A stretch of DNA of 64,000 nucleotides from an uncultured Burkholderiales bacterium. Its GTDB lineage: Bacteria > Actinomycetota > Acidimicrobiia > IMCC26256 > JAGPDB01. Location: contig CAZFAO010000007.1 in the NCBI GenBank assembly GCA_964516875.1, positions 1,464 to 65,463 of the forward strand, read 5' to 3'. Position numbers and translations under genes: made by a program. The notes under the pieces were generated by a model. It was not told where the DNA came from and made no database searches. It saw only the letters and a program-made list of their open reading frames with translations. Shown in pieces: positions 1-14,671 of this stretch; position 1 is the stretch's first letter; every line of letters starts with the position of its first letter.

Positions 1-398
1 CAGAAACAACCTCGTCGTCATCATCACCAACAACGTCACAAACTACATCTCCAACAACGTCTCGTCCTGTAAGCACGACTCAACCCACAGCAACAACAAT
101 TCCTCAAGGGGAAGTAAACGCACTGACTCAGCTCAACCCATTGACTGCGCCGATCGCTAAAGCAAAAGAAAATGCGAGTCATCCTGAAACCGTTCGCACG
201 GAAGTAAAATCAGCATCGGCTACTCGTCAACCGGTACTGAAAAATCTCTCACCGACAGACAACAATATGTTCGACGCAATCTTGTTGCTCCTCATTGCAC
301 TCGCAATCATCATCTACACACAGCGAGAAAAAATACGTGACTTGATTCATCGCGAAAAGTCAGTCATCTCTCACTCCTCACCACCTAAGTGGCATTAG
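1..398 (+). CDS. C-terminal end of a surface protein (5' end cut by window edge); paralog of the 560..3895 product
   Basis: Frame 3 is open from base 3 (ETTSSSSSPTTSQTTSPTTS..., a Thr/Ser/Pro stalk) to TAG at 396-398. The last ~50 aa (RQPVLKNLSPTDNN-MFDAILLLLIALAIIIYTQREKIRDLIHREKSVISHSSPPKWH) align position-for-position with the C-terminus of the next gene, and the DNA is also clearly similar. Confidence 0.65.
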   Translation, partial: ETTSSSSSPTTSQTTSPTTSRPVSTTQPTATTIPQGEVNALTQLNPLTAPIAKAKENASHPETVRTEVKSASATRQPVLKNLSPTDNNMFDAILLLLIALAIIIYTQREKIRDLIHREKSVISHSSPPKWH

Positions 399-559: not shown

Positions 560-3500
560 GTGATAGGGGTTAATGCATCGACGCGACTAAAAACGGGAGT
601 AAACACGCTCACCCGGTTCTCCATGCCGCTCATAATTATCGCAACATTCTTCTCTTTTCTTATCATCAACACAGCTCAAGCGACACCGTATCACGAACTT
701 GTTTTGTCTCCCAGTTACGCACCTGATGAATATGTGACTACGTGGGAAACGTATGTTCCTCCGGGAACCACTGACAACAGAATAGCTATCGCACTCGACA
801 TTGAAAACAGTTCATCTGTTGTCGTCGACTGGGGTGACGGAGCAGTTGAAACCAACGTAACACTCGAGACTCCTTCTCATCTTTATGCCGAGCCGGGCAT
901 ATACGAAATTAAAATTTCGGGTGGTCTGACATACTTTACGACTCTGCGATCTTATGGAAAGCTTCTCTCCGTCGAACAATGGGGATCAACTCCATGGTCA
1001 TACATGGGAGAAATGTTTCGTGGAGCACAACACATTGTTTTTAACGCACTAGATGTTCCTGATCTCAGCAACGTCGCAAGCATGTACCGAATGTTCTTTG
1101 GCGCTTCATCATTCAATTCAAACATCAACAACTGGGATGTATCCAACATCATTGATATGCATGAAATGTTTTCTAGCGCAACAGCATTTAACCAACCGCT
1201 GAACGACTGGGACACATCGAGCGTCACCAATATGAGTGAAATGTTTCACTATGCATCAGCATTTAATCAACCGCTCGATAACTGGGACGTGAGCAATGTC
1301 ATCGACATGGGCTCAATGTTTTGGGGCGCTACAGCATTCAACCAAAATATCAACACGTGGGATACAGGCAATGTCACTTCGACTGGCCACATGTTCGCTA
1401 ATGCGAGTTCATTTAATCAACCGTTAGATCAGTGGGATGTCTCGAACGTTACGTACACGACGGCAATGTTTGAAGGAGCGGCTTCATTCAACCAAAATAT
1501 CAACACATGGAATACGGAAAGCCTGATATCAACTGCCGCAATGTTCGCTATTGCATCGTCATTCAATCAGCCCCTCAACAACTGGGACACATCCAACGTC
1601 ACCGACACCAGAGAAATGTTTCGGGGCGCACGAGTATTTAACCAACCGCTTGACAACTGGGACACATCCAACGTCACCGATATGAGCTCTATGTTTGACG
1701 CTGCATGGGTATTTAATCAACCCCTTGATAGTTGGGATACGAGCAACGTCACCACCATGAGCGACATGTTCTATTACGCAGCAGTATTCAACCAATCACT
1801 CAATATTTGGGACACATCCAACGTCACCGATATGAGTTCTATGTTTTACGGCGCACGAGAGTTTAACCAACAGCTCAACGGCTGGGACACGAACAACGTT
1901 ACAACCATGGCTGAAATGTTTGCTGGGGCAATGTCTTTTGACCAGTCGCTTGCTAGCTGGGATGTATCCAATGTTACAGACATGACAAACATATTTGGCG
2001 GACGCGAGGGTGACGATCCTTATTATGATGCGATTTTAAGTTCCACCAACTACGATGCCACCCTTAGCGCATGGAGCGGACTTACATTACAAGGTAACGT
2101 AACTTTTAACGCACGCGGTTCGTATTATTGCGAGGCTGAAAATGCTCGTGAATCAATTATCACTAACTTCAATTGGACAATCATAGATGAAGGGAAAGAA
2201 TGCCCAATTGAATTTGAAGAAAGCGACCTCTTCATTACGACATGGCAGACCGACAACCCCGGCTTTAGTTATGGCTCTGTGTCTCTCAGCGCAGACGAAG
2301 ACTATTCCTATCGGTACTATGTCGATTGGGGGGATGGAAATACGGACATGAACGTGAAGTCCGGAATTTCTCATGACTATGCTGAACCTGGAGTCTATAC
2401 AGTCAAAATTGCTGGCGATTACCCTCAGTTTGGCGCAAGCCACCTGACAAAGCTTCTCTCTGTTGAACAATGGGGAACAATCCAATGGGAAACCACAGAA
2501 TATATGTTTAGCGAGGCCTTGAATGTCGTTATTAATGCGACCGATATTCCTGATCTCAGTAGCGTGTCGAGCATGGAAAGAATGTTCTATGACATCTCTT
2601 CGATCAATTCGAACATCAACAACTGGGATGTATCCAACGTCACAAACATGAACGGAACGTTTTGGGGAGTCTCTTCGTTCAACCAACCACTCAACAACTG
2701 GGACGTATCCAACGTCACAGACATGCGCGGGATTTTTTGGGGCGCAACGTCTTTTAATCAACCCCTCAACAACTGGGACACGAGCAACGTCACAGACATG
2801 CGCGGAATGTTTGGTTTTGCATCATCTTTCAACCAACCACTCAACAACTGGGACACATCCAATGTCACAGGCATGACCGCAATGTTTGGGGGAGCCTCAT
2901 CCTTCAATCAACCTCTCAACAACTGGGATGTATCGAACGTCACAGACATGAGCGAAATGTTCACTCAAGCCACATCTTTCAACCAACCACTCAACAACTG
3001 GGACACATCCAATGTCACAGGCATGACCGAAATGTTCTCTCAAGCCACATCATTCAATCAACCTCTCAACAACTGGGACGTGAGCAACACCACAAACATG
3101 CTCGGAATGTTTTCAAGTGCTGAAAACTTTGATCAATCTCTTGGCAGCTGGGATGTGAGCAATGCGACCGATATGAGATACATGTTTGGCAACTACGATG
3201 AACTAATTGAAAATGCTATGGGTGATACCCCCTACTCAGAATGGCCAGAATATATTAGAGATATGTACGGCCTTCCCCTATCTGGTCTCTCCGTTGAAAA
3301 TTACGATGACACGCTAAATTCATGGAGTCAACTCGATCTTCTCGACGATATTATCTTCGATGGCGGAACGAGCCAATTCTGTGACGCTGAAGGTGAACGA
3401 CAATCAATAATCTCTGATTTTGGATGGACTATAAACGATGCCGGAAACGGATGCATCACACCAGAAGAAGAAACGCCCCCAACAACCACAGTGGCAACAA

Positions 3501-3895
3501 CTGTTACAACAACTCCCGCTCACGTCACCACGACCCCCACCACAACACCAACTCCGTCGACAATTCCCTCGACAGCGCCCGCGAAAACAGCAACAACAAC
3601 ACCAGGCTCACTGCTCAATTTCCCAGGCAGCAGCACAGATAATCTTCCCGTTGTCAAAGCAGAAGAAGCACTCGAGTACATAGCGAAAGCACAAACAAAA
3701 GCCCTTGCCAAACGAGACGTACGTCAACCATTACTGGGGAACTACTCCCCCACAAACAACAACGCATACGACGCAATCTTGTTGCTCTTGCTAGCACTCG
3801 CCGTCATAGCGTACACGCAGCGACAAAAAATACGTGACATGATTCATCGAGAAAAATCAGTTATCTCTCACCACTCACCACCAAAATGGAAATAG
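560..3895 (+). CDS. Large secreted DUF285/BspA-type repeat surface protein with two [PKD-like VDWGDG module + 25-aa repeat array + Cys-capped domain] units, a Thr/Pro stalk and a C-terminal TM anchor
   Basis: 1111-aa ORF with a GTG start at 560. The N-terminus has basic residues, then a hydrophobic stretch ending AQA, which looks like a signal peptide (an in-frame ATG at 623 is an alternative start). About 22 repeats follow the pattern MFxxAxxFNQPLxxWDxSNVTxMxx, typical of DUF285 / bacterial surface protein ~26-residue repeats. There are two VDWGDG...H.YAEPG.Y.(I/V)KI.G motifs, a TTPTTTPTPST stalk, and a C-terminal helix AILLLLLALAVIAY followed by a basic tail. Confidence 0.85.
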   Translation: MIGVNASTRLKTGVNTLTRFSMPLIIIATFFSFLIINTAQATPYHELVLSPSYAPDEYVTTWETYVPPGTTDNRIAIALDIENSSSVVVDWGDGAVETNVTLETPSHLYAEPGIYEIKISGGLTYFTTLRSYGKLLSVEQWGSTPWSYMGEMFRGAQHIVFNALDVPDLSNVASMYRMFFGASSFNSNINNWDVSNIIDMHEMFSSATAFNQPLNDWDTSSVTNMSEMFHYASAFNQPLDNWDVSNVIDMGSMFWGATAFNQNINTWDTGNVTSTGHMFANASSFNQPLDQWDVSNVTYTTAMFEGAASFNQNINTWNTESLISTAAMFAIASSFNQPLNNWDTSNVTDTREMFRGARVFNQPLDNWDTSNVTDMSSMFDAAWVFNQPLDSWDTSNVTTMSDMFYYAAVFNQSLNIWDTSNVTDMSSMFYGAREFNQQLNGWDTNNVTTMAEMFAGAMSFDQSLASWDVSNVTDMTNIFGGREGDDPYYDAILSSTNYDATLSAWSGLTLQGNVTFNARGSYYCEAENARESIITNFNWTIIDEGKECPIEFEESDLFITTWQTDNPGFSYGSVSLSADEDYSYRYYVDWGDGNTDMNVKSGISHDYAEPGVYTVKIAGDYPQFGASHLTKLLSVEQWGTIQWETTEYMFSEALNVVINATDIPDLSSVSSMERMFYDISSINSNINNWDVSNVTNMNGTFWGVSSFNQPLNNWDVSNVTDMRGIFWGATSFNQPLNNWDTSNVTDMRGMFGFASSFNQPLNNWDTSNVTGMTAMFGGASSFNQPLNNWDVSNVTDMSEMFTQATSFNQPLNNWDTSNVTGMTEMFSQATSFNQPLNNWDVSNTTNMLGMFSSAENFDQSLGSWDVSNATDMRYMFGNYDELIENAMGDTPYSEWPEYIRDMYGLPLSGLSVENYDDTLNSWSQLDLLDDIIFDGGTSQFCDAEGERQSIISDFGWTINDAGNGCITPEEETPPTTTVATTVTTTPAHVTTTPTTTPTPSTIPSTAPAKTATTTPGSLLNFPGSSTDNLPVVKAEEALEYIAKAQTKALAKRDVRQPLLGNYSPTNNNAYDAILLLLLALAVIAYTQRQKIRDMIHREKSVISHHSPPKWK
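1013..2003 (+). repeat. Coding tandem-repeat array 1 (~13 x 75 nt / 25 aa)
   Basis: The translation shows 13 consecutive units starting MF.. and ending ..NVT.M.., with a 75-nt period. Confidence 0.8.
2505..3194 (+). repeat. Coding tandem-repeat array 2 (~9 x 75 nt) with stretches identical at the DNA level
   Basis: 2825-2879 is identical to 2975-3029 (55 nt). The string ttcaatcaacctctcaacaactggga recurs at 2903 and 3053. The string aaccaaccactcaacaactgggac also occurs at ~2681. Confidence 0.85.
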
Positions 3896-3920: not shown

Positions 3921-5312
3921 TCAATAATCGCCATCGCTTACACGTTCGTATACAGATGTGCTCTCGAGTGGATCAGCAAAATCGAGAGTGCACATTTTTT
4001 CTTGTGCACTTGGCCCAAACGAACGAATCACAATCGGTGCATCCAGTGCTTTTTCAATGTGCTCCTCTAGTTCTTGGATGCACGTTATTGTTTCGAGAAC
4101 GGGGGTTGCCTGCGCGCACGCCTGCGCTAAAAGCTGCTGGCGATTTAAATCACGCTTGTTTCCGGGAATGATTCGAGTATTGCCAGAATCTGTTGGCTCA
4201 AAAAGTTCTTCAAAAATATCGACGTCACTGTATTGATTACAGATTTTCCAATCTTGGCCCACCCAATCACATCCGGTGAGAACAATTCCATCAACTCCGC
4301 CTGCCACTTCACAAGCGTAACGATGAGCGACGAGATCTAACCATCCCATGCGAAAACTTCCCTGCCACTCGCCACATCCGTTGTGCATTTCGTTGATTGA
4401 TTCTTCCAGTTTCGGGTCATGTGTCACGAGCGGTCCTGCACCATGACGAGTTGTATATGTTCTCATCACACCCAAGCGCACAACCTCACCATCAAATCCA
4501 ATGTCATTCAACAACGTGAACGCATTTTCGTGCGTCGTTGTACTCCAGGTCGTATACGGATGGAAACCAAACCATTCATCGAGCAACACGCCTTGCGCGC
4601 CCTCAAAAATGATTGTTTCTTGGGCGTGTGTGTGCAGTGCGAAGTCGCGGTTGTTGATAATGAAAACTTTGTCCGCCCATGTTCTGTATTCGCTAGCTAA
4701 TTGTTCGATAAGTGTGTCGTCGGAAAAAAGTGGAGAATCTAATGCATCAAAGTGAACACCTGACTCCGTGCCGAGAAGATGTAGCTGGCCCCGTTTGTAA
4801 TCGCGAAGTTTGCGCAAACGCATTGTGAGATTGCCCGTTATATCTTTAACGCGAAGAACAAGATTGGGTGCATCAAGCGAGTCACATTGCGTCTCTCCCA
4901 CTCCCTGACCACAACTTCCGTGAGCATTGCCGGCCCGATGCGTTTCACGGATGCGATTCATTGATACTTGCCACGGCGTGATGATGAGGGCATCAGAATC
5001 AACACTGGTGCGATCCCAAATATCATGGACGCCAAGGTCGATCAAATGTTGAGCTTCTGTCATCATGTTCAATGGATTGATCAACATGAATCGCGAAAGA
5101 TGTGTACGGGATGTGGAAACAAAACTTCCCGACCCAAATTGTGCAAAGGTGTGATGGCGTCCGTCGGGTGTGATGACATTGTGCGCGGCTTGCGCCCCTC
5201 CGCAATGACGAACAACGAGTGATGATGCGCACTGTCGAGCGAGAAAATCGACAGTCGTTCCCTTACCCGCATCGCCGTACCCGAGATCCGTGACAATAAA
5301 CGCTTTGCCCAT
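3921..5312 (-). CDS. Divergent PurA-family (adenylosuccinate synthetase-like) GTP-dependent ligase, probably not the housekeeping PurA
   Basis: 463 aa. PurA landmarks recognised: GDAGKGT (P-loop GDEGKGK), GGAQAAH (GGHNAGH), FEGAQGVLLD (FEGAQGTLLD), YTTRHGAGP (YSTRVGAGP), GWLD, SFGP (STGP). The GATTGRRRR aspartate loop is replaced by CGEWQGSFR. SD-like AAAGGGA lies upstream of the ATG. Confidence 0.75.
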   Translation of the reverse strand: MGKAFIVTDLGYGDAGKGTTVDFLARQCASSLVVRHCGGAQAAHNVITPDGRHHTFAQFGSGSFVSTSRTHLSRFMLINPLNMMTEAQHLIDLGVHDIWDRTSVDSDALIITPWQVSMNRIRETHRAGNAHGSCGQGVGETQCDSLDAPNLVLRVKDITGNLTMRLRKLRDYKRGQLHLLGTESGVHFDALDSPLFSDDTLIEQLASEYRTWADKVFIINNRDFALHTHAQETIIFEGAQGVLLDEWFGFHPYTTWSTTTHENAFTLLNDIGFDGEVVRLGVMRTYTTRHGAGPLVTHDPKLEESINEMHNGCGEWQGSFRMGWLDLVAHRYACEVAGGVDGIVLTGCDWVGQDWKICNQYSDVDIFEELFEPTDSGNTRIIPGNKRDLNRQQLLAQACAQATPVLETITCIQELEEHIEKALDAPIVIRSFGPSAQEKMCTLDFADPLESTSVYERVSDGDY

Positions 5313-5394: not shown

Positions 5395-6447
5395 CTACAC
5401 GCGAGATGAACCCAATCCTCGACCTGCGTCGACATCGAGATCCGGCAGCGAACCACTCGCGCGGGCAACCTGGCCACCCTTGCTCGGTTTGTTTACCACG
5501 GAAGAATTTGGATCGATGACCGCAAGCGCAGAACCAACAGCTTTGCGTTGCGCGCTCGTTGCACCTAACTCTTTGAGGTCGTCATCGACAATATCTGGCG
5601 TCACTTTGTGTTCAAGCACTCCCACAATTCCCGCAATGGTGTCACACACTGCAGCAGGGTCGTTCAACACAAGAGCGCGTTCACCAAGAAGTTTTCGCCA
5701 TTCCGGCAAAATGTCATCTTGATGGTACATGCCTTGTTCTTGAAAGAGAAAGAACACCTCATATTGTTCTTGCAACTTTGCAAATACCTCAGCAGTGGAA
5801 ACATTTGCCTCCGCGCCGAGACCAGCATATTTTTTCAAGTGTTCTTTTCTCACTTTGTCATACGGCTTTTCATCGCCGATGAAAAAGAGATAGCCCTTTC
5901 GTCCTTGTTTCTCGGCACTCTCAAGATACGTATGATACGCGTGCAAATACGCAAGCAATTCATACGTTTCATGCGTTTGTCCACCTCCGTTGCCCTCCAA
6001 GACCATTGCCTCGAGTTGGGCATCAATTCGGTTGTCGCTTTCAAACTGTCCAAACTGAACCGGAAAGCGATCTGTATAAGCATCACCCGTTGCCGACACA
6101 TTGATTTGCGGATCATCCACATACCCTTTGGTCTGCAACAGCGAAAACAGCTTCGGCAAACTTGCGTGCGTTGTGCGCGCCGCTGCGATGTTCGAACCCG
6201 TCACGTCGAGGACAATTCCTATTGCCGTTGGATTCGGATGTTCGTCGGTAATCATGACTTCCCTCATGACCTGTCCTGCGTGCGGGCTTGTTGGGCCTGC
6301 AACAGTTTTTGCGTCAAGCAGCGCGTTGACCGCACTCGCTCGACCTGATCGGACTTCGTAATCGTGTCCGAATGTCGGAGCGTTCGTCGCCTTTTTGGCT
6401 TTCACGCTCGAGTCGTATGTTCCTACATTCCAGCTTCCGCCACCCAT
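5395..6447 (-). CDS. von Willebrand factor type A (vWA) domain protein with an intact-looking MIDAS
   Basis: 350 aa. It has VLDVTGS (DxTxS), a later EGNGGGQTHE (GGxT) and FFIGDEKP (xxDG/E-like), in the order and spacing expected for vWA. A perfect SD (AAGGAG) lies 6 nt upstream of the ATG at 6447. Confidence 0.7.
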   Translation of the reverse strand: MGGGSWNVGTYDSSVKAKKATNAPTFGHDYEVRSGRASAVNALLDAKTVAGPTSPHAGQVMREVMITDEHPNPTAIGIVLDVTGSNIAAARTTHASLPKLFSLLQTKGYVDDPQINVSATGDAYTDRFPVQFGQFESDNRIDAQLEAMVLEGNGGGQTHETYELLAYLHAYHTYLESAEKQGRKGYLFFIGDEKPYDKVRKEHLKKYAGLGAEANVSTAEVFAKLQEQYEVFFLFQEQGMYHQDDILPEWRKLLGERALVLNDPAAVCDTIAGIVGVLEHKVTPDIVDDDLKELGATSAQRKAVGSALAVIDPNSSVVNKPSKGGQVARASGSLPDLDVDAGRGLGSSRV

Positions 6448-6501: not shown

Positions 6502-7662
6502 TTACCTCACAATCGAATCAGTGAGTTGGAGGGGTCGGAAAACGCGTGGGTGGAACGGCTTTCCGAGGTTTTCGAGTAGGTCATCAAACTCGGCTAAAAG
6601 TCTGAAGGCATTATCAGGTCGCCCCATCTGTGAAGCGACGATGCATCCTTTGAAATGTCGCTGCATGGGGACAGGAATGGAATCAGGAAGTTCACCGGTA
6701 AGAGGATTTCCTCCACAGAGAAAGATCATTGACCGCGCAGCCATGGCGATGTCGGTTCCGGCATTCGGTGATATTTTCTCGGTGACTTCTAAAGGATACC
6801 AGTCGCGATATTTATCAACGACTGCTTGGATAGGAGTAAGAGCAGATTTTTTTTCGGTGCTGGAATAGCACCAGTCGATGAGAATCACGCCATGTTTTTC
6901 TGGCTCAATCAAAATGTTTGTGGGAACAACGGCGCCGTGAACAATTCCGTTGTCGTGAGCAAAACCAATCGCACATAAAAGGCGACGCCAGATCCACGCC
7001 ATGTGCTTGGGATCTAAACCTCGCGGGAAATACTCGTCTTTGAGTTGTGCGAGATTCACAAAGTTCTTGTCAACAAGTGCAATGACATTTGCTTGACGAT
7101 TGGGTTTTCCCGTTTCGGCAAACGCAAAAGAATCAACCAATGTCGAGACAAAGGGGCGCCACTGCTCTTCGGCTGTGTCACTGCCAAGAATACGAAGCGC
7201 TTTTTCTTCTGCTTGCATCAAATCGTTATCAATCGAACTGCGCACAATTTTGACGAGCGTTGGCGTTGTTGCGCCCGCAATTTCTGATTCCGCGAGATAC
7301 ACGTCGGCTATATCCCCTGTGGCAAAACCTTTGATGATTCTGTGTGTTGCGAGTTTTGTCTCAATCTCAGCAAGAGGTTTAACCTCTCCGTAGGTATCGT
7401 TGTTGATTGCGTCGTGAGCTTTGTGGTGCATGTCCGTCATGCGAGTAAATGCTTGTTCTGCAAGCGCCTTTTGGTCAGGATCGGGATAGAGATCAGGATG
7501 GAGAACGCGCGCGATTCGTCGGTACTCGCGATTAAGATTTTTTTGGCGAGTTGTGTTGTCTTTGCCAAGATCACCAAAGATTTCAACGTACGATGTGGCG
7601 TCGAGAACGAGCTTTGCAGCAACTGCTAGCGAATATCCCCCATCGTTGACCACGCAGTACAC
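6502..7662 (-). CDS. J-domain (DnaJ N-terminal-like, HPD present) fused to a protein-kinase-like domain with a degenerate catalytic loop
   Basis: 386 aa with a GTG start. The N-terminus reads SYVEIFGDLG...LNREYRRIARVLHPDLYPD...AFTRMTDMHHKAHDAI, a J-domain pattern with HPD. The C-terminal part carries TLVKIV (VAIK-like Lys), QAEEKAL (alphaC Glu), HDNGIVHGAVVPTNILI (HRDxKxxN with HRD changed to HGA) and ILIDW (DFG changed to IDW). Confidence 0.65.
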   Translation of the reverse strand: MYCVVNDGGYSLAVAAKLVLDATSYVEIFGDLGKDNTTRQKNLNREYRRIARVLHPDLYPDPDQKALAEQAFTRMTDMHHKAHDAINNDTYGEVKPLAEIETKLATHRIIKGFATGDIADVYLAESEIAGATTPTLVKIVRSSIDNDLMQAEEKALRILGSDTAEEQWRPFVSTLVDSFAFAETGKPNRQANVIALVDKNFVNLAQLKDEYFPRGLDPKHMAWIWRRLLCAIGFAHDNGIVHGAVVPTNILIEPEKHGVILIDWCYSSTEKKSALTPIQAVVDKYRDWYPLEVTEKISPNAGTDIAMAARSMIFLCGGNPLTGELPDSIPVPMQRHFKGCIVASQMGRPDNAFRLLAEFDDLLENLGKPFHPRVFRPLQLTDSIVR

Positions 7663-7867
7663 CCCAATCTGTTTTTAGGCATAGAAAAATAGACCTAATT
7701 TTGGTGGTTTCCACCCGTTACTTTTCAGTAACTAGTGATTAGATAGAGAGTAACATCATGTCCGATTTTCGTAAAGGTCCTGGTCACGACGCGTGGCTTC
7801 GTTCATTGCATTTCCGAAATTGAGATTGCGAATTGATGACTTGTTGCATATCACCTAAATTGGTTTA

Positions 7868-8797
7868 ATGACACGATTTAACACTATTCGAGCTATTGGA
7901 ATATCCGCTTCCCTTTTCGTTGCCAGCGGGTGTGGCACTTCAGACCCAAGCCATGACGCGGTAAAAACTATTGATCTCGTAGACATCGATCGTGCGCCCG
8001 AAGGAACAATCACTATGTCGAATGGATTGCGCATCACAAATTACACAGCGGGTAAATCAACTGTGATGTGGAATAGTGACGGAATAAGACTTCACGTAGA
8101 TTCTCCAAAAAGGATTGATGGTCAACTTTCACTTACTTTCGTCTCAAAAGACAAAAACAATCCTCTTGTGAAAAACGTGCGAATGCAATCTTTTCACATT
8201 GATGCTGATTCATTTCGAAAAAGAATACCTACTGAAGAGATTGATACTTTTCTTAAGGCCAATGATCTTGATCGCGAAAAAATCGCTATTCGCGTTCGCG
8301 TTACCGGAAAAATGGCGGGGGTATTGAGCCCCTTCAACGTCTCAACAAAAATTAGTTATTATGATGCTGCGAAATGGCCATTAGCTAAACCGGAAGCGTA
8401 CAAAACACCAAATGGCAAGACATCGTGCGAATTGTCGCATAACGAAACAAGAACATCCGTTAGTGTAGTTGGAGATGGAAAAGGTGGAACGCGCTCAGTA
8501 ATAAGTTCAAGGACTGTCAGCATTGAAGATGGTCACGTTGACTTTGTCGCTGTGAAAGGTCGAACATACGCAATCAAATCTCACCCTTCAGATAGCGATG
8601 ACACTCTTGAAGGAACAATAACAATTGATGATAACGATGAAAAAGTAACAATCGATATTGGTAACTTAAAAAGCAACACACAAGAAGTGCTCGGCTTACT
8701 AGATCGTGAACCTCTCAGCTTGAACCACATAAAAGCAGATCTTAAATACCGCCATGGAAGCGTTGTCGACGGGGAATCATCGTGTACAGTTCGATGA
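7868..8797 (+). CDS. Orphan lipoprotein
   Basis: 309 aa. The signal peptide ends in the lipobox LFVASG-C. I recognise no other motifs. The gene looks AT-richer than its surroundings by eye. Confidence 0.6.
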   Translation: MTRFNTIRAIGISASLFVASGCGTSDPSHDAVKTIDLVDIDRAPEGTITMSNGLRITNYTAGKSTVMWNSDGIRLHVDSPKRIDGQLSLTFVSKDKNNPLVKNVRMQSFHIDADSFRKRIPTEEIDTFLKANDLDREKIAIRVRVTGKMAGVLSPFNVSTKISYYDAAKWPLAKPEAYKTPNGKTSCELSHNETRTSVSVVGDGKGGTRSVISSRTVSIEDGHVDFVAVKGRTYAIKSHPSDSDDTLEGTITIDDNDEKVTIDIGNLKSNTQEVLGLLDREPLSLNHIKADLKYRHGSVVDGESSCTVR

Positions 8798-10581: not shown

Positions 10582-13500
10582 TTAGCTCGAGGAAGCTTGG
10601 CGCGATTTACGACGACGCAACATCGTCAACTGGAGCAAGAATCCAACACCGATCACTGCCGCAATATCAATGAGCAATAGCGCATTCGATATACCGGTAT
10701 TAGCAAGCTCTCCGCTAATAGACGTTCGAGGCGCAGGAACAACAGTGCTTGTGGGAACAGCCGTTGGAGGAACAGTCGTTGTGGTCGGAACGCTCGCCGG
10801 GTCAATCACCAACCCAAGATCAATTGTGAGATTATCATTTGCATCCGAACCCGTATGGCCTCCTGTTTCACCCGTTGGATTGTTGAGATAGCTCACACTC
10901 AGAATGTTCGTTCTGAAACGAGAACCATCGACAATCAAGTCTTGCTGATCATCTTCATCGACATCATCTGTTGGATCATCCGAACCTTCGGGAGCTTCAA
11001 TGAAGTCGTGCAACGGCCCACCGGAATCAAAGTTAGAAGAATCAAGCTCGATGTAATAATCGCCCGGAGCTACACATTGCACCAACCACCGTCCATCAGA
11101 ATCGGTCGTGGTTGTCTTGGAAAGAACATCGTCTCCCCCACCAATATCACCGTCGATACCAACGGAATACAAGTTCAGTACAACGCCTTCAATTCCTGTG
11201 TCACCAGAATCATATTTTCCATTACCGTTGACGTCATTGAACACTAGGTTGCCGAGATTCAAACACGACGGCGTCACAGCAGAAACATCCGAAGACAACA
11301 CGGGCAAAGCTAAAGCCGTCGCGCGCGCTTGCCAACTGTTGGTGTAGACCTCTTCCCCATCATTGTCATTTGTTTCAAGTTCAAAGTGGAAGAGACCATA
11401 TTGTCCCGCTGTCATCGAAACGGTTTTGATACGGATGGCAGTCACTTCATCTGCGTCAGGACAGCCAGACGTTCCCAGTTGCGAAAATTCACAACTCCAC
11501 TTACCTGTTCCCGCTGCGGGGTTGCTTGAATCATTGGGATCATCGCTCAGCGTTGCAGGATCATCGGATGTGACATAAATTTTGCTGATGAGTCCTGTTG
11601 AAAATGTTTCTTGTGCCATCGTCAACGAGTATCCACCATCGACATCGGAGACAGGCGAACGACCATCGTCGTCGTAAGGAAATATATCGATTCCGTCCAT
11701 GACTTTTGCGCTACCCGTTAAGTTTCCGAACGCAAGCGTGAAGCCCAGTGTTCCATCCAGATCGATGGAAGTGTCGCTGATGTATTTTTCGATATTGAAT
11801 GATTGCGCTGTTGCGATTTGAACCCAGTCGTCATCATAGGGACCTGACGTTGGGTCATAGTGATATGCCGTACCCGTTGTTCGAAACGGAAGTGTCGCGG
11901 GCAAATCTTGCAAACCCTCTTCTGCATCTATCCACGCTTTATTCTGCAGATATGCTGCGTTAGGAATGTAACTGGCAATACGCGTTGTCACTTGGAAATT
12001 ACCAAACAACGTGTAGTCCGTCGCTGGTGTTTCTGGTGATCCACTCTGATCGAATGTGAAATCTCCACGGTCCCAACGAAGAGTTGTGTATCCGTAGTTC
12101 GTTCTCGCTGCGGGATTTGCAATACACGCAAAATTGGCAACGGCATTACAGTCAGTAATAACAGCTGATGGTGTAAGTGTTGCCGATTGGTACACCATTC
12201 CTGGAGGCATGACGTCATAGATATGAACACCTCCGATTGCAACATCAACGTTAAATGACATTCCGGCTTTGATGTTATATGTCCACGTCCCGCCCAGTGA
12301 CACAGAGGCAGCAACATCAACCGCCGGTGACGAATCGTACTTTTGAATGATGGCTGTCGGCTGCACAACAATTGCGCGGTCAGCTAAAGCGATACAACTA
12401 TAGAGTCCCGACGATGCGTTCCAGATATCATTTTCCGGAATACAGGTAGGGTTTGAACCGTACCACGCACCTGAATTGATGTTCGATGCTTTATACCGAT
12501 TGAAGTTGAACATCTTTGTATTTTCAGCCAGTCCAGTTTTTGCTCGAAGCGATTGATACGTTGTGATAGTCATCCCGGGAGGAAGCGCTTTTAAAATTCG
12601 CACGCGCACCAAGTTCACATTCGCCAAACCACCAGGATGCGTAGACGGATCCTCCACCCATGTCAGCGAACCGCTGTCGCAGTTAACAGTGCGCTGTTGC
12701 GATGATGTCGAAAAAGTTGTGCCCGTACTTGCGTATTCGACCACAACATCGGAGTCACCGATCACAGGGAAAGAAGGATCAGGAGTTCCCACTTTGTACC
12801 AGCTATACCACGAATGCGATGAACCGCTCGCGCCGCTGGGGAGCGAAGGTGCTGAGTGTTCAATGAAATTGTATTTTGTTTGGTCAATTGCATCACAGCT
12901 CGTCCAGTCTTCCAGACCATACGCTGAGGTTGTATTGACATCGGCGACTTGCGCTTGCGCAAAGTTCATTCCCGGTGCAACGTAGTTATCGCTATCCCCA
13001 GGACCGAGTGCGCCTTGCGTTAAACCAAGATCAGCTTCCGGTCCCGAACCCACGCGGCCACCATATTCTGTAAAGTACTTCGCGGTCCACGGTCCTGTGC
13101 CAGTGAGGTAATTAAAAACGACACAGTTTTGGTTGTTCGAAACATCATCAACACCTGACGATCCTCCTGTAACGGCAGCATCACCGATGTCATTGCACCA
13201 ACTGATGAAGTTTGCACGAACATCACGGTCGCCCGCTGTTTGGTCAAAATCGAGAATTGTTTGGAAAGGATATTTAATGCGAACTACCTGTGTCGCGACG
13301 GGGGCTTGGTTGTGCAGACCCGCGGGTGAGTTATATATAGAGTTGGATGTCCCTGAGTTATATGCCCAGTAGCTTGTGCGGTTGGTTGATTTTCCATACG
13401 GAAACCAGTCGGGCGACCAGTCAATTCCTGTTGCAGAAATATCGATATCGGTACCTACACCACCCGATTGGGTACATGTCCACGAACCTGAATTTTGGAC

Positions 13501-14385
13501 CGCAAGAATATCTCCCAATGTTAACGACGACGAGTTAGGCAAATACTGCTGGTCACTTGTGACGGGTAGACACCCCACCAACTCGCCTTCGGAGTTGACA
13601 GGAAGTTGTGACGAATCACCAGTGGCGAGTTTGTCATCAAGACTTAATGTGGAAAAAGCTCCAGCGTTAAGACCCTTGACTTGTCCAACTTCAGGAGATT
13701 TCACTTCCGTTTGAACACCCCAGTCGACTTGGATATATTCAGGATCACCAACTCCATCGCGAAGAATAGTGATAGGGCCTTTTTGTTTACGGACTTCGTA
13801 ATCGCCTGCTTCGGAGACAACCTCAACGGTGTCGGTACCTGACGCTTGAGGTGTGGGGTTGGTTCCCAAACTGGCATCAGGAGTCATTGTTGCGCTGACA
13901 GTAAATTGAGCAGTGACGTCGGTTCCATTGGGTACAGATGATTTTCCGAACCACGCACCACTGACGTTAAGAGTTGTTCCAGTAGAGAATGTGCCTGAGA
14001 CAACACAAGTCATTGTTTTTCCGTCAACGCTCAGAGTTTTCGTTCCACATGCACTAGGAAGACTATTGAGCATCCAGGCAACATCAGCGCTGGTTGAAGT
14101 GAGCGTTGCAACAATGGTGACGCCACTTAATTGGTGTGGCGATGCATCCAATGTATTCATGTTGACATCGAACGTGTAACTGGTGGTGTCGAGTGAGGCG
14201 ACTAATCCATTCGACGCATTGGGATCAATGGAAATAAAAGGCGCGGTACCATCGGCTGTTTTGGTCAAAGCTGCTCCGAGCGCTACAACAGGGGGCGCAG
14301 CATAGGCTTTGCGGATAAGTGAAACTGAACATATCGACGTCGCCAGAACGGTGATGGCGATGAGCGCGAGAAGTCGTTTTGACAT
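10582..14385 (-). CDS. Very large LAXTG-anchored cell-wall surface protein (adhesin-like) with a C-terminal SdrD-B/Cna-B-like domain
   Basis: The ORF reaches 14433, but the likely start is M17 (MSKRLLALIAITVLATS...AYA signal peptide). The C-terminus has LANTG (10693-10707), a hydrophobic stretch and RRRKSR, forming a sortase signal. The stretch NLVFNDVNGNGKYDSGDTGIEGVVLNLY...TTTDSDGRW...PGDYYIE matches the SdrD B-like repeat pattern. A TTTTVPPTAVPT stalk is also present. Confidence 0.8.
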   Translation of the reverse strand: MSKRLLALIAITVLATSICSVSLIRKAYAAPPVVALGAALTKTADGTAPFISIDPNASNGLVASLDTTSYTFDVNMNTLDASPHQLSGVTIVATLTSTSADVAWMLNSLPSACGTKTLSVDGKTMTCVVSGTFSTGTTLNVSGAWFGKSSVPNGTDVTAQFTVSATMTPDASLGTNPTPQASGTDTVEVVSEAGDYEVRKQKGPITILRDGVGDPEYIQVDWGVQTEVKSPEVGQVKGLNAGAFSTLSLDDKLATGDSSQLPVNSEGELVGCLPVTSDQQYLPNSSSLTLGDILAVQNSGSWTCTQSGGVGTDIDISATGIDWSPDWFPYGKSTNRTSYWAYNSGTSNSIYNSPAGLHNQAPVATQVVRIKYPFQTILDFDQTAGDRDVRANFISWCNDIGDAAVTGGSSGVDDVSNNQNCVVFNYLTGTGPWTAKYFTEYGGRVGSGPEADLGLTQGALGPGDSDNYVAPGMNFAQAQVADVNTTSAYGLEDWTSCDAIDQTKYNFIEHSAPSLPSGASGSSHSWYSWYKVGTPDPSFPVIGDSDVVVEYASTGTTFSTSSQQRTVNCDSGSLTWVEDPSTHPGGLANVNLVRVRILKALPPGMTITTYQSLRAKTGLAENTKMFNFNRYKASNINSGAWYGSNPTCIPENDIWNASSGLYSCIALADRAIVVQPTAIIQKYDSSPAVDVAASVSLGGTWTYNIKAGMSFNVDVAIGGVHIYDVMPPGMVYQSATLTPSAVITDCNAVANFACIANPAARTNYGYTTLRWDRGDFTFDQSGSPETPATDYTLFGNFQVTTRIASYIPNAAYLQNKAWIDAEEGLQDLPATLPFRTTGTAYHYDPTSGPYDDDWVQIATAQSFNIEKYISDTSIDLDGTLGFTLAFGNLTGSAKVMDGIDIFPYDDDGRSPVSDVDGGYSLTMAQETFSTGLISKIYVTSDDPATLSDDPNDSSNPAAGTGKWSCEFSQLGTSGCPDADEVTAIRIKTVSMTAGQYGLFHFELETNDNDGEEVYTNSWQARATALALPVLSSDVSAVTPSCLNLGNLVFNDVNGNGKYDSGDTGIEGVVLNLYSVGIDGDIGGGDDVLSKTTTTDSDGRWLVQCVAPGDYYIELDSSNFDSGGPLHDFIEAPEGSDDPTDDVDEDDQQDLIVDGSRFRTNILSVSYLNNPTGETGGHTGSDANDNLTIDLGLVIDPASVPTTTTVPPTAVPTSTVVPAPRTSISGELANTGISNALLLIDIAAVIGVGFLLQLTMLRRRKSRQASSS

Positions 14386-14671
14386 AGTTGTAGCTGTAAG
14401 AAGGCGTTCCAACGATATCTCCGTTTTTTCCATCGCTTAATACAATATTTAAGCGTGCATGATTCTATGCGCTTATCACCTATATATTCGGGATATTTGG
14501 CCTCTCAGTTGAGCACATTATTGGGAGATTTGGCCGAAGAAATGGCCCTTTGGCGCATGCCGTATACGCGGCACAGTGTTTTTGTCGTACCCCTGGTGTA
14601 GGGTGATGACTAAGCACCGTTCTTATTGAGCATGAAGCTTTCTTCCCTAAATAATCGTCCAAGGAAGAATC

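Follow-up and report, generated by a model that had tools for sequence, protein, structure and literature searches.

J-domain proteins direct Hsp70 chaperones, and pseudokinases are recognised scaffolds. The class C (type III) J-proteins, such as HscB, which serves IscU, and auxilin/GAK, which serve clathrin, likewise join a J-domain carrying the His-Pro-Asp (HPD) motif to a specialised client module and are encoded beside the presumed client. Phage RB43 Rki offers a precedent for a phage-borne J-protein (PMC3486835). Here we analysed a 64,000-nt stretch of contig CAZFAO010000007.1 (positions 1,464 to 65,463; assembly GCA_964516875.1, placed by GTDB in the Acidimicrobiia), hereafter the window, in whose numbering positions are given. 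On its minus strand, at 6502..7662, lies an open reading frame (ORF) for a J-domain followed by a kinase fold that lacks key catalytic residues, hereafter the J-pseudokinase. It is the first gene of a triad whose other members encode a vWA-fold protein and a divergent enzyme of the PurA family. A literature search found no description of the J-pseudokinase protein or of the triad. The comparisons reported here suggest that the J-pseudokinase family probably marks an undescribed system linked to nicotinamide adenine dinucleotide (NAD).

Neither domain could be asserted from the query alone, because its Pfam matches were weak and below threshold: DnaJ (PF00226) at E 3e-3, with 18.1 bits against a cut-off of 27.8 (residues 33-77), and Pkinase at E 1e-4, with 22.2 bits against 31.7 (residues 214-274). 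We searched a profile of 32 family N-termini against all solved-structure sequences and found only J-domains among its 60 best matches, including DNAJA3 (7e-8), CbpA (5e-7), E. coli DnaJ (7.6e-7), auxilin (2e-6) and Sec63. The profile alignment spans helices I-IV, with 'Y..vFG' in helix I, then 'YrrLArvlHPD', then 'AxxAFxxL...YG' in helices III and IV. Individually, 39 of 79 family members match Pfam DnaJ (E<0.01). In the query the domain occupies approximately residues 10-92 (7387..7635, minus strand), and the HPD motif (residues 55-57; nt 7500-7492) sits between modelled helix II (residues 36-54) and a long helix III (residues 62-87). Residues were counted in 262 relatives throughout, and HPD is well kept among them (H in 251, P in 245, D in 258). 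The J-domain signature is complete, consisting of a basic helix II, the HPD motif and the helix III pattern A-x-x-A-F-x-x-L. Judged by sequence, the N-terminal ~90 residues are a bona fide J-domain, and stimulation of the Hsp70/DnaK ATPase by this domain is predicted.

The remainder of the protein (approximately residues 96-380; 6523..7377, minus strand) corresponds to a Hanks-type kinase fold with N-lobe strands, helix alphaC, catalytic and activation segments, a YPxE (APE-like) motif, the alphaF Asp (D304) and the GHI helices. AlphaFold2, given an alignment of 79 sequences, produced a model with a mean predicted local distance difference test (pLDDT) value of 95.1 and a predicted template-modelling score (pTM) of 0.88, which places a bilobal alpha/beta domain after the J helices. 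Foldseek searches of this model against the PDB returned about 2,000 protein-kinase chains at probability 1.0, including Pim1, GRK2 and TNIK, with a template-modelling (TM) score of ~0.72 on Pim1. All NCBIfam kinase models scored far under their cut-offs for the query. Apart from Pkinase, Pfam scans of the query and 79 members matched only APH, RIO, Kdo and choline kinase.

We set the register of the catalytic motifs by HMMER alignments of the query to PknB and of the family profile to CK2alpha. They pair IVHGAVVPTNILI with IIHRDVKPANIMI in PknB and with HRDVKPHNVMI in CK2, and VILIDWCYS with VKVMDFGIA in PknB and with LRLIDWGLA in CK2. Given these alignments, the HRD Asp corresponds to Ala244, the HRDxK Lys to Val246 and the DFG Asp to D263. 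The catalytic loop HGAVVPTN (6916..6939, minus strand), aligned to HRDxKxxN, is thus degenerate at two positions, and the loss is general: the HRD Asp position holds Ala in 251 relatives, Gly in 6, Ser in 5 and Asp in none, and the HRDxK position holds Lys in none of the 262. The catalytic-loop Asn position is Asn in 38 relatives, as in the query's clade, and His in 216. The Mg-binding D263 belongs to a DWC motif (6868..6876, minus strand), a CK2-like DWG variant of DFG, and is Asp in 220 relatives (84%), the rest having G, N, E or H. From the beta3 Lys K138 (nt 7251-7249) to the alphaC Glu E152 (nt 7209-7207), a span of 7207..7251 on the minus strand, both pocket residues are nearly invariant (K in 248, E in 259). 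Fold-stabilising residues are kept more strictly than the metal-binding Asp (H242 in 261, P247 in 259, H257 in 258, W264 in 254 and the alphaF D304 in all 262). The APE-like Y289-P290-x-E292 and R348 are also retained in the family, so the protein-substrate face of the kinase fold is preserved.

In place of GxGxxG, the Gly-rich loop reads A-T-G-D-I-A-D-V-Y and forms a 3-residue hairpin turn with a nearly invariant G116-D117. In several viral homologues (L093, L094, L096 and L101) the tip of this loop is R-G-D, in the contexts ARGDIADLF, YRGDIANLY and FRGDIACLY. The R-G-D tip is an integrin-ligand-like motif, and it occurs here beside a gene for a vWA protein resembling integrin I-domains.

Much of the initial annotation of this gene, which was made from the letters of the window, is borne out by these results. 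It had proposed a J-domain with an intact HPD, a kinase fold behind it, a beta3 Lys and an alphaC Glu, and the replacement of HRDxKxxN by HGAVVPTN with loss of the HRD Asp, and all of these stand. Its further claim that the DFG Asp is missing arose from a register that was off by one, as D263 aligns with the Asp of DFG and DWG. The catalytic-loop Asn that it pointed out is present in the query and fails as a landmark of the family, where His prevails. Its framing as either a pseudokinase or an atypical transferase is upheld. Its mention of SelO and SidJ gains no sequence link, since neither the Pfam scans of the query and 79 members nor the PDB sequence matches gave any signal for SelO (UPF0061) or SidJ. 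By its residues, then, the J-pseudokinase is a pseudokinase in the usual definition, with the nucleotide-pocket residues retained. The HRD Asp, the HRDxK Lys, the Gly-rich loop and the curated scores all place it outside the catalytically competent Hanks-type kinases.

The family is large. A word-indexed search for the J-pseudokinase gave 240 matches, and an exhaustive search (E <= 1e-30) gave 1,660 clusters at 50% identity, nearly all of them 320-410 aa long and matched over their full length. The family occurs in at least 597 species-level genomes, with hosts in Actinomycetota (Micromonospora, Dactylosporangium, Actinomadura, Nocardiopsis, Frankia, Streptomyces and Acidimicrobiia), Chloroflexota (Ktedonobacteria and Anaerolineae) and Patescibacteria (Saccharibacteria, Woesebacteria and Microgenomates). 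Its members are named 'Ser/Thr kinase', 'DnaJ' or 'hypothetical' in databases. It is also carried by phages: the Bxz1-like mycobacteriophages (Bixzunavirus) encode the triad as gp261 ('serine/threonine kinase'), gp262 (hypothetical) and gp264 ('PurA-like'), and among 26 uncultivated viral contigs from IMG/VR, with lengths that are often 100-500 kb, 24 have it as well. The viral J-pseudokinases retain the HGA loop.

In the window, the J-pseudokinase gene is followed on the minus strand, after a 54-nt gap, by the gene for the vWA-fold protein (5395..6447; 350 aa), and this in turn, after 82 nt, by the gene for the PurA-family enzyme (3921..5312; 463 aa). The order J-pseudokinase, vWA, PurA-like recurs in 73 of the 74 genome loci with enough downstream DNA and in every contig found by exact look-up. 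The vWA and PurA-like neighbours that the initial annotation had named, and had called an unusual company, are therefore confirmed as an almost invariant operon. Clustering of flanking ORFs, called with a crude caller that produced antisense artefacts in high-GC loci, showed nrtR alone recurring and no fifth conserved gene. No PP2C phosphatase belongs to the conserved core, in which nrtR, the J-kinase, vWA and PurA-like genes recur. Rosetta-stone fusions of the three proteins were sought and none was found; one apparent candidate, a long vWA homologue (P0218, 595 aa), was rejected, its insertion being an intein.

Membership in a known defence system was likewise considered and rejected. The PADLOC kinase matches (PD-T4-6, MkoA and mad6) were weak and restricted to the kinase core, with a best E of 2.6e-9, and the query scored 28 bits with the MAD6 NCBIfam model, whose cut-off is 460. 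PADLOC gave no match for the vWA or the PurA-like protein.

The vWA protein has no Pfam match. Its model (pLDDT 86) shows a vWA fold of the integrin I-domain type, and its metal ion-dependent adhesion site (MIDAS) motif, D81-x-T83-x-S85 with G191-D192-E193, is invariant. It is the best conserved protein of the triad, with 55% identity to a protein of mycobacteriophage Erdmann. Its two ends are distinctive. The N-terminus MGG[GA]xW is nearly invariant (M1, G2, G4 and W6 each at >=90%) and persists even in Vibrio phage Va1, whose protein is 33% identical overall, and the C-terminal ~35 residues are disordered with a conserved end, ...LP...G-[TS]-x-R-[LV]. The PurA-like enzyme, the pseudokinase or DnaK could use one of these ends as a site of docking or modification. 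An intein-like insertion (CNTPD...SSNC) interrupts some vWA homologues directly before the invariant FIGDE of the MIDAS motif. In several Bxz1-like phages the match to the vWA query is split in two and extends over ~1.7 kb rather than 1 kb, as would be expected from the same insertion.

The Pfam match of the third protein is to Adenylsucc_synt, at 7.6e-57, and the NCBIfam scores fall well short of the functional models (PurA 147.7 against 402 bits, PurZ 46 against 300). In E. coli PurA, D13, H41 and K16 effect phosphotransfer, N38, T129, R143 and T239 bind the phosphate of inosine monophosphate (IMP), and T300, T301, R303 and R305 bind aspartate. We aligned the PurA-like protein with E. coli PurA and 76 orthologues from the surveyed loci. 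D13, K16, H41, Q224, D333 and S414 are kept. Changed family-wide are E14A, K18T, N38Q (77/77), T128S, T129C, S240W and V273H (77/77), and R131 and R143 are lost. The aspartate loop T300-T301-G-R303-R304-R305 has become W-Q-G-(gap)-x-F, and K331 is replaced by H, N or G. This pattern suggests an enzyme that keeps the GTP-dependent machinery by which an oxygen is phosphorylated and a nitrogen nucleophile then takes its place, with remodelled pockets for the IMP phosphate and for aspartate. The name adenylosuccinate synthetase should not be applied to the third gene on its residues. The PurA-like protein of phage Va1 keeps E14 and N38 and is thus intermediate between PurA and the triad type.

The gene neighbourhood, which we surveyed at 80 genome loci, suggests a connection of the triad to NAD metabolism. 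In Solwaraspora, a gene with NUDIX and NrtR_WHD domains, both above Pfam cut-offs, overlaps the start of the J-pseudokinase gene. An nrtR-like gene adjoins the triad in 43 of 44 other Actinomycetota, where it is usually the first of a four-gene operon, in 11 of 12 Patescibacteria and in 3 of 20 Chloroflexota. The Saccharibacteria triad lies among pncA, pncB, nadD, nadE and pnuC and genes for NadR-like AAA_28 and His_Phos_1 proteins.

Operators point in the same direction. Upstream of the Patescibacteria J-pseudokinase gene are one or two tandem 21-bp palindromes, TTAGTGT-N7-ACACTAT, which fit the NrtR operator core GT-N7-AC (PMC2330246). A weight matrix built from the Patescibacteria sites, which are therefore part of those it scores, found matches within 260 nt upstream of the J-pseudokinase gene at 12 of 13 Patescibacteria loci and at 15 of 20 Chloroflexota loci, the Chloroflexota sites and those at NAD genes being independent of its construction. 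Over 1.45 Mb it located 72 sites, 48 of them inside these 260-nt intervals, which make up ~1.4% of the DNA. The same operator stands in the Saccharibacteria pncA/His_Phos and nadE/nadD divergons and ahead of pncB. In Chloroflexota, including Ktedonobacteria (L002, L014, L018-L021, L024, L025, L027, L039, L040, L048, L050 and L051), one or two copies of TAGTGT-N7-ACACTA precede the J-pseudokinase gene by ~40-180 nt, with no nrtR gene within 10 kb of these operator-bearing triads; in these lineages the triad would thus belong to the NrtR regulon as a remote member. The Actinomycetota nrtR-triad operons (L003, L030, L041-L046 and others) have two or three tandem copies of TTCTCA-N4/5-GAGA(A) 20-130 nt before nrtR, and the exact form TTCTC-N5-GAGAA occurs in 17 of 44 Actinomycetota loci. 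The TTCTCA-N4/5-GAGA(A) motif does not resemble GT-N7-AC and may define the operator of this Actinomycetota NrtR subgroup.

ADP-ribose is a known anti-repressor of NrtR (PMC2330246). As ADP-ribose relieves NrtR, the triad is predicted to be induced upon NAD cleavage in most lineages. Because it is co-transcribed with nrtR or stands behind NrtR operators in most of them, a part in the response to ADP-ribose accumulation and NAD turnover appears the most likely role, and the occurrence of the triad in large phages fits an NAD-centred conflict between host and phage.

Several further observations concern this NAD setting. Two viral contigs have a NADAR gene beside the triad, and two further ones have an nrtR-like gene there. 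In Rhizobium phage RHph_Y65, a vWA and PurA-like pair lies 3-4 kb from NadM-like and phosphoribosyltransferase-like genes. In Saccharibacteria, a ~540-aa fusion of NUDIX and the kinase-like APH domain is encoded beside pncB (L006 157-1779, minus strand; also L012, L016, L023 and L032), constituting a second kinase-fold protein in the NAD island of the triad. We also considered whether the nrtX-nrtY pair of Rodionov et al. (2008; PMC2330246) might be the triad; it comprises two genes divergent from nrtR and is probably something else.

With moderate confidence, we favour the reading of the J-pseudokinase as a non-catalytic class C J-domain adaptor that brings DnaK to its vWA and PurA-like partners. 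A scaffold is favoured over conserved transferase chemistry because the DFG Asp is lost in 16% of relatives and the structural residues are better kept. The pseudokinase domain would dock the vWA protein, the PurA-like protein or both. One speculative contact would place the vWA MIDAS metal on an exposed acidic residue, for example D117 at the tip of the Gly-rich loop, as integrin I-domains bind ligand aspartates. The J-domain would then switch host DnaK into its client-locking state on the docked complex. DnaK would play the role of a MoxR-type AAA+ ATPase, using ATP to remodel or activate the partner enzyme; the known MoxR AAA+/vWA pairs include CbbQ/CbbO, NorQ/NorD and RavA/ViaA. Nucleotide binding in the K138-E152-D263 pocket may gate the DnaK step. 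For vWA domains in operons regulated by NrtR-like Nudix-HTH proteins, a role as Mg-dependent peptide-binding chaperones has been proposed (Iyer et al., 2022; PMC9503650).

Several points weigh against this adaptor reading and its NAD setting. First, the window and its nearest relative, the Acidimicrobiia metagenome-assembled genome L001, have neither a nearby nrtR nor a GT-N7-AC operator, so that the NAD link for the window is drawn from other lineages; an NrtR regulator of the window triad could lie elsewhere in the genome. Second, Vibrio phage Va1 (L005 5001-7083) and Rhizobium phage RHph_Y65 (L117 5001-7275) encode the vWA and PurA-like pair with no J-kinase within 5 kb. As these proteobacterial phages have the pair without it, the J-protein is an accessory rather than part of the core. 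Third, the comparison with MoxR is an analogy. Finally, K138, E152 and D263 are kept beyond the strict needs of a pure scaffold, which leaves room for some nucleotide-dependent chemistry; a nucleotide-dependent function is argued for chiefly by how nearly invariant K138 and E152 are.

This last point favours an atypical active enzyme, a reading that we consider unlikely. The K138/E152/D263 pocket would then support SelO-like AMPylation or a phosphorylation whose base has moved, for instance to D117 or H249/H257, and the J-domain would dock the enzyme on its substrate, DnaK or the vWA protein. SelO, which lacks the HRD Asp but has the Lys and the DFG Asp, shows the pattern of pseudokinase folds for which activity was eventually demonstrated, and retention of the K-E-D triad in most members of our family matches that pattern. 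G116-D117 and H257-G258 are invariant near the pocket, where His also occupies the Asn position in 216 of 262 relatives, and chaperone-directed kinases have precedents in LegK4 and HopBF1, which target Hsp70/Hsp90. However, D263 gives way to G, N, E or H in 16% of relatives while the fold-stabilising residues exceed 97%, and the Gly-rich loop is cut to a 3-residue hairpin turn. Moreover, Pfam similarity to SelO or other atypical transferases is absent, and the alternative catalytic residues are putative.

Less probable still is a small-molecule function, in which the protein would be a nucleotide sensor or kinase of NAD metabolism. Its pocket would bind ADP-ribose, NAD, GTP or whatever the PurA-like enzyme makes, and its J-like region would have a secondary part. 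Both the context of NrtR and NAD salvage and the Pfam matches of 21 of 79 members to APH and of 5 to Kdo suit this reading. The loop HGA-hydrophobic-x-x-x-N/H also resembles the HGD-L-x-x-x-N motif of APH, RIO and Bud32, and CK2alpha, a kinase that uses GTP as well as ATP, is the best solved-structure match of the family profile. Yet the J-pseudokinase still has an APE-like motif, the alphaF Asp and the GHI helices, which are typical of protein-directed Hanks kinases and absent from small-molecule kinases of the APH/RIO type, and it has no catalytic Asp for phosphotransfer. The HPD motif, kept in >93% of members, argues that J function is under selection.

That same conservation bears on a further reading, to which we assign a lower probability again, namely that DnaK is not a partner of the J-like N-terminus. 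This region would instead form a helical extension packed on the N-lobe, with a structural HPD, and the protein would be a scaffold for vWA and PurA-like proteins only. The whole-chain pTM of 0.88 suggests a J-domain packed on the kinase domain rather than freely tethered. Helix III is unusually long (26 residues), the Pfam DnaJ score of the query is under the cut-off and some viral homologues have no recognisable HPD. Against this, the family conserves HPD, a basic helix II and the helix III pattern just as functional J-domains do, its profile matches J-domains only, and conservation over four phyla and phages is hard to explain without an Hsp70 interaction. An ordinary Ser/Thr protein kinase, as named in most database records and hinted at by weak Pkinase, PknB and PD-T4-6 matches, is very improbable, as none of the 262 relatives has the catalytic Asp or the HRDxK Lys, a GxGxxG loop is missing and every curated score is far under its cut-off.

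Returning to the adaptor reading, we can place it within a wider interpretation, which we advance only tentatively and regard as unlikely, though with a real chance of being right. The triad would be an unrecognised ADP-ribose/NAD-responsive system common to Actinomycetota, Chloroflexota, Patescibacteria and large phages, NrtR-induced on ADP-ribose build-up, by which phages would cope with NAD-depleting immunity. Its PurA-like enzyme would use GTP to activate an oxygen, either of a nucleotide- or ADP-ribose-derived substrate or possibly of a protein N-terminus such as the invariant, Gly-rich one of the vWA protein, and would join a nitrogen nucleophile to it. The J-pseudokinase and the vWA protein would together form its DnaK-dependent activase.

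Turning to the locus itself, the J-pseudokinase ORF (6502..7662, minus strand) codes for 386 aa from the GTG at 7662. The NCBI call (P0001) begins 3 codons downstream at the GTG at 7653, giving 383 aa. A G-rich stretch lies 8 nt ahead of GTG 7653, which is probably the true start. At 50-75 nt upstream of the start is an imperfect palindrome, AGTTACT-GAAA-AGTAACG on the strand of the J-pseudokinase gene (7712..7737), a possible operator that departs from the GT-N7-AC form of NrtR sites. The palindrome of L001, at 7945-7969, is a perfect 12+12 one, CAACAAAATAAG/CTTATTTTGTTG; it differs from that of the window and is not of the NrtR type either. A promoter and terminator scan gave counts at chance level and was uninformative. 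Because the gene order ComM-like Mg-chelatase, SdrD_B surface protein, XerC-like recombinase, sigma factor and triad recurs in L001, a relative with 57% identity, the triad is chromosomal here, with no obvious mobile element.

The SdrD_B-domain surface protein of the window (10582-14433, minus strand; 1,283 aa) has near its C-terminus a sortase-like LANTG (LAxTG type), a hydrophobic stretch and an RRRK tail. A 1,111-aa protein (560-3895, plus strand) contains 8 DUF285-matching stretches (Pfam 4e-230) in two modules. It also has a PKD-like segment, a linker rich in Thr and Pro and, at its C-terminus, a membrane anchor that ends in SPPKWK. The 85-aa ORF at 141-398 (plus strand) ends in AILLLLIALAIIIYTQREKIRDLIHREKSVISHSSPPKWH, nearly identical to the anchor of the DUF285 protein, as though truncation had left only the tail of a paralogue.

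Among known systems, the class C J-proteins are the natural reference for the J-pseudokinase, which differs from them in that its client module is a kinase fold and its partners are vWA and PurA-like proteins. GAK has its kinase, which is active, at the N-terminus and its J-domain at the C-terminus, whereas here the J-domain is N-terminal; GAK and auxilin are thus an architectural analogy only, as the initial annotation had already presented them. Pocket-retaining pseudokinases of the STRAD-alpha and HER3 type, with SelO as the enzymatic exception, are alike in missing the HRD Asp and in keeping the beta3 Lys, the alphaC Glu, a DFG-type Asp, the fold and the regulatory spine. The present family differs in being bacterial and phage-borne and fused to a J-domain, and in its CK2-like DWC, its G-D hairpin tip and the His that replaces the catalytic-loop Asn in 82%. 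With CK2alpha it shares 'H-x-x-V-x-P-x-N/H-V-M/L-I ... L-I-D-W-G/C', including the DWG variant. CK2alpha, however, has a full HRDVKPHN loop and is constitutively active, the similarity is limited (E 5e-9) and may be convergent, and no CK2-beta partner is present here. By these comparisons, a J-protein with a pseudokinase client module would combine known kinds in one protein, in a form absent from the searched literature. The family thereby unites a director of Hsp70 with a scaffold fold, and it is large and conserved in bacteria and phages.

The triad as a whole can be set beside other multi-gene systems. MoxR AAA+/vWA pairs and the triads of vWA, Ser-Thr kinase and PP2C (TerY-P; PMC7159879) likewise combine a MIDAS vWA protein, a target enzyme and a partner that couples energy or has a kinase fold. 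Our triad differs from both in having no AAA+ ATPase and no PP2C and in its inactive kinase fold, and its ATPase would be DnaK acting in trans. The third gene shares the Adenylsucc_synt match and the catalytic residues with PurA and phage PurZ and departs from them in the residues for the IMP 5'-phosphate and in the aspartate loop. Two labels look wrong, 'serine/threonine kinase' for the genes of Bxz1-like phages and 'adenylosuccinate synthetase' for the third gene. The NrtR-regulated prs-nadV (PMC2330246) and the phage modules NARP1, NARP2 and NARP3 resemble the triad in their NrtR linkage in bacteria and their carriage by large phages, but no triad protein is related to Adps, Namat, NadV, NadM, NadR or PnuC. 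The triad may thus provide a testable entry into an uncharacterised branch of NAD and ADP-ribose biology, the field to which NARP1-3 and several NAD-depleting defence systems belong.

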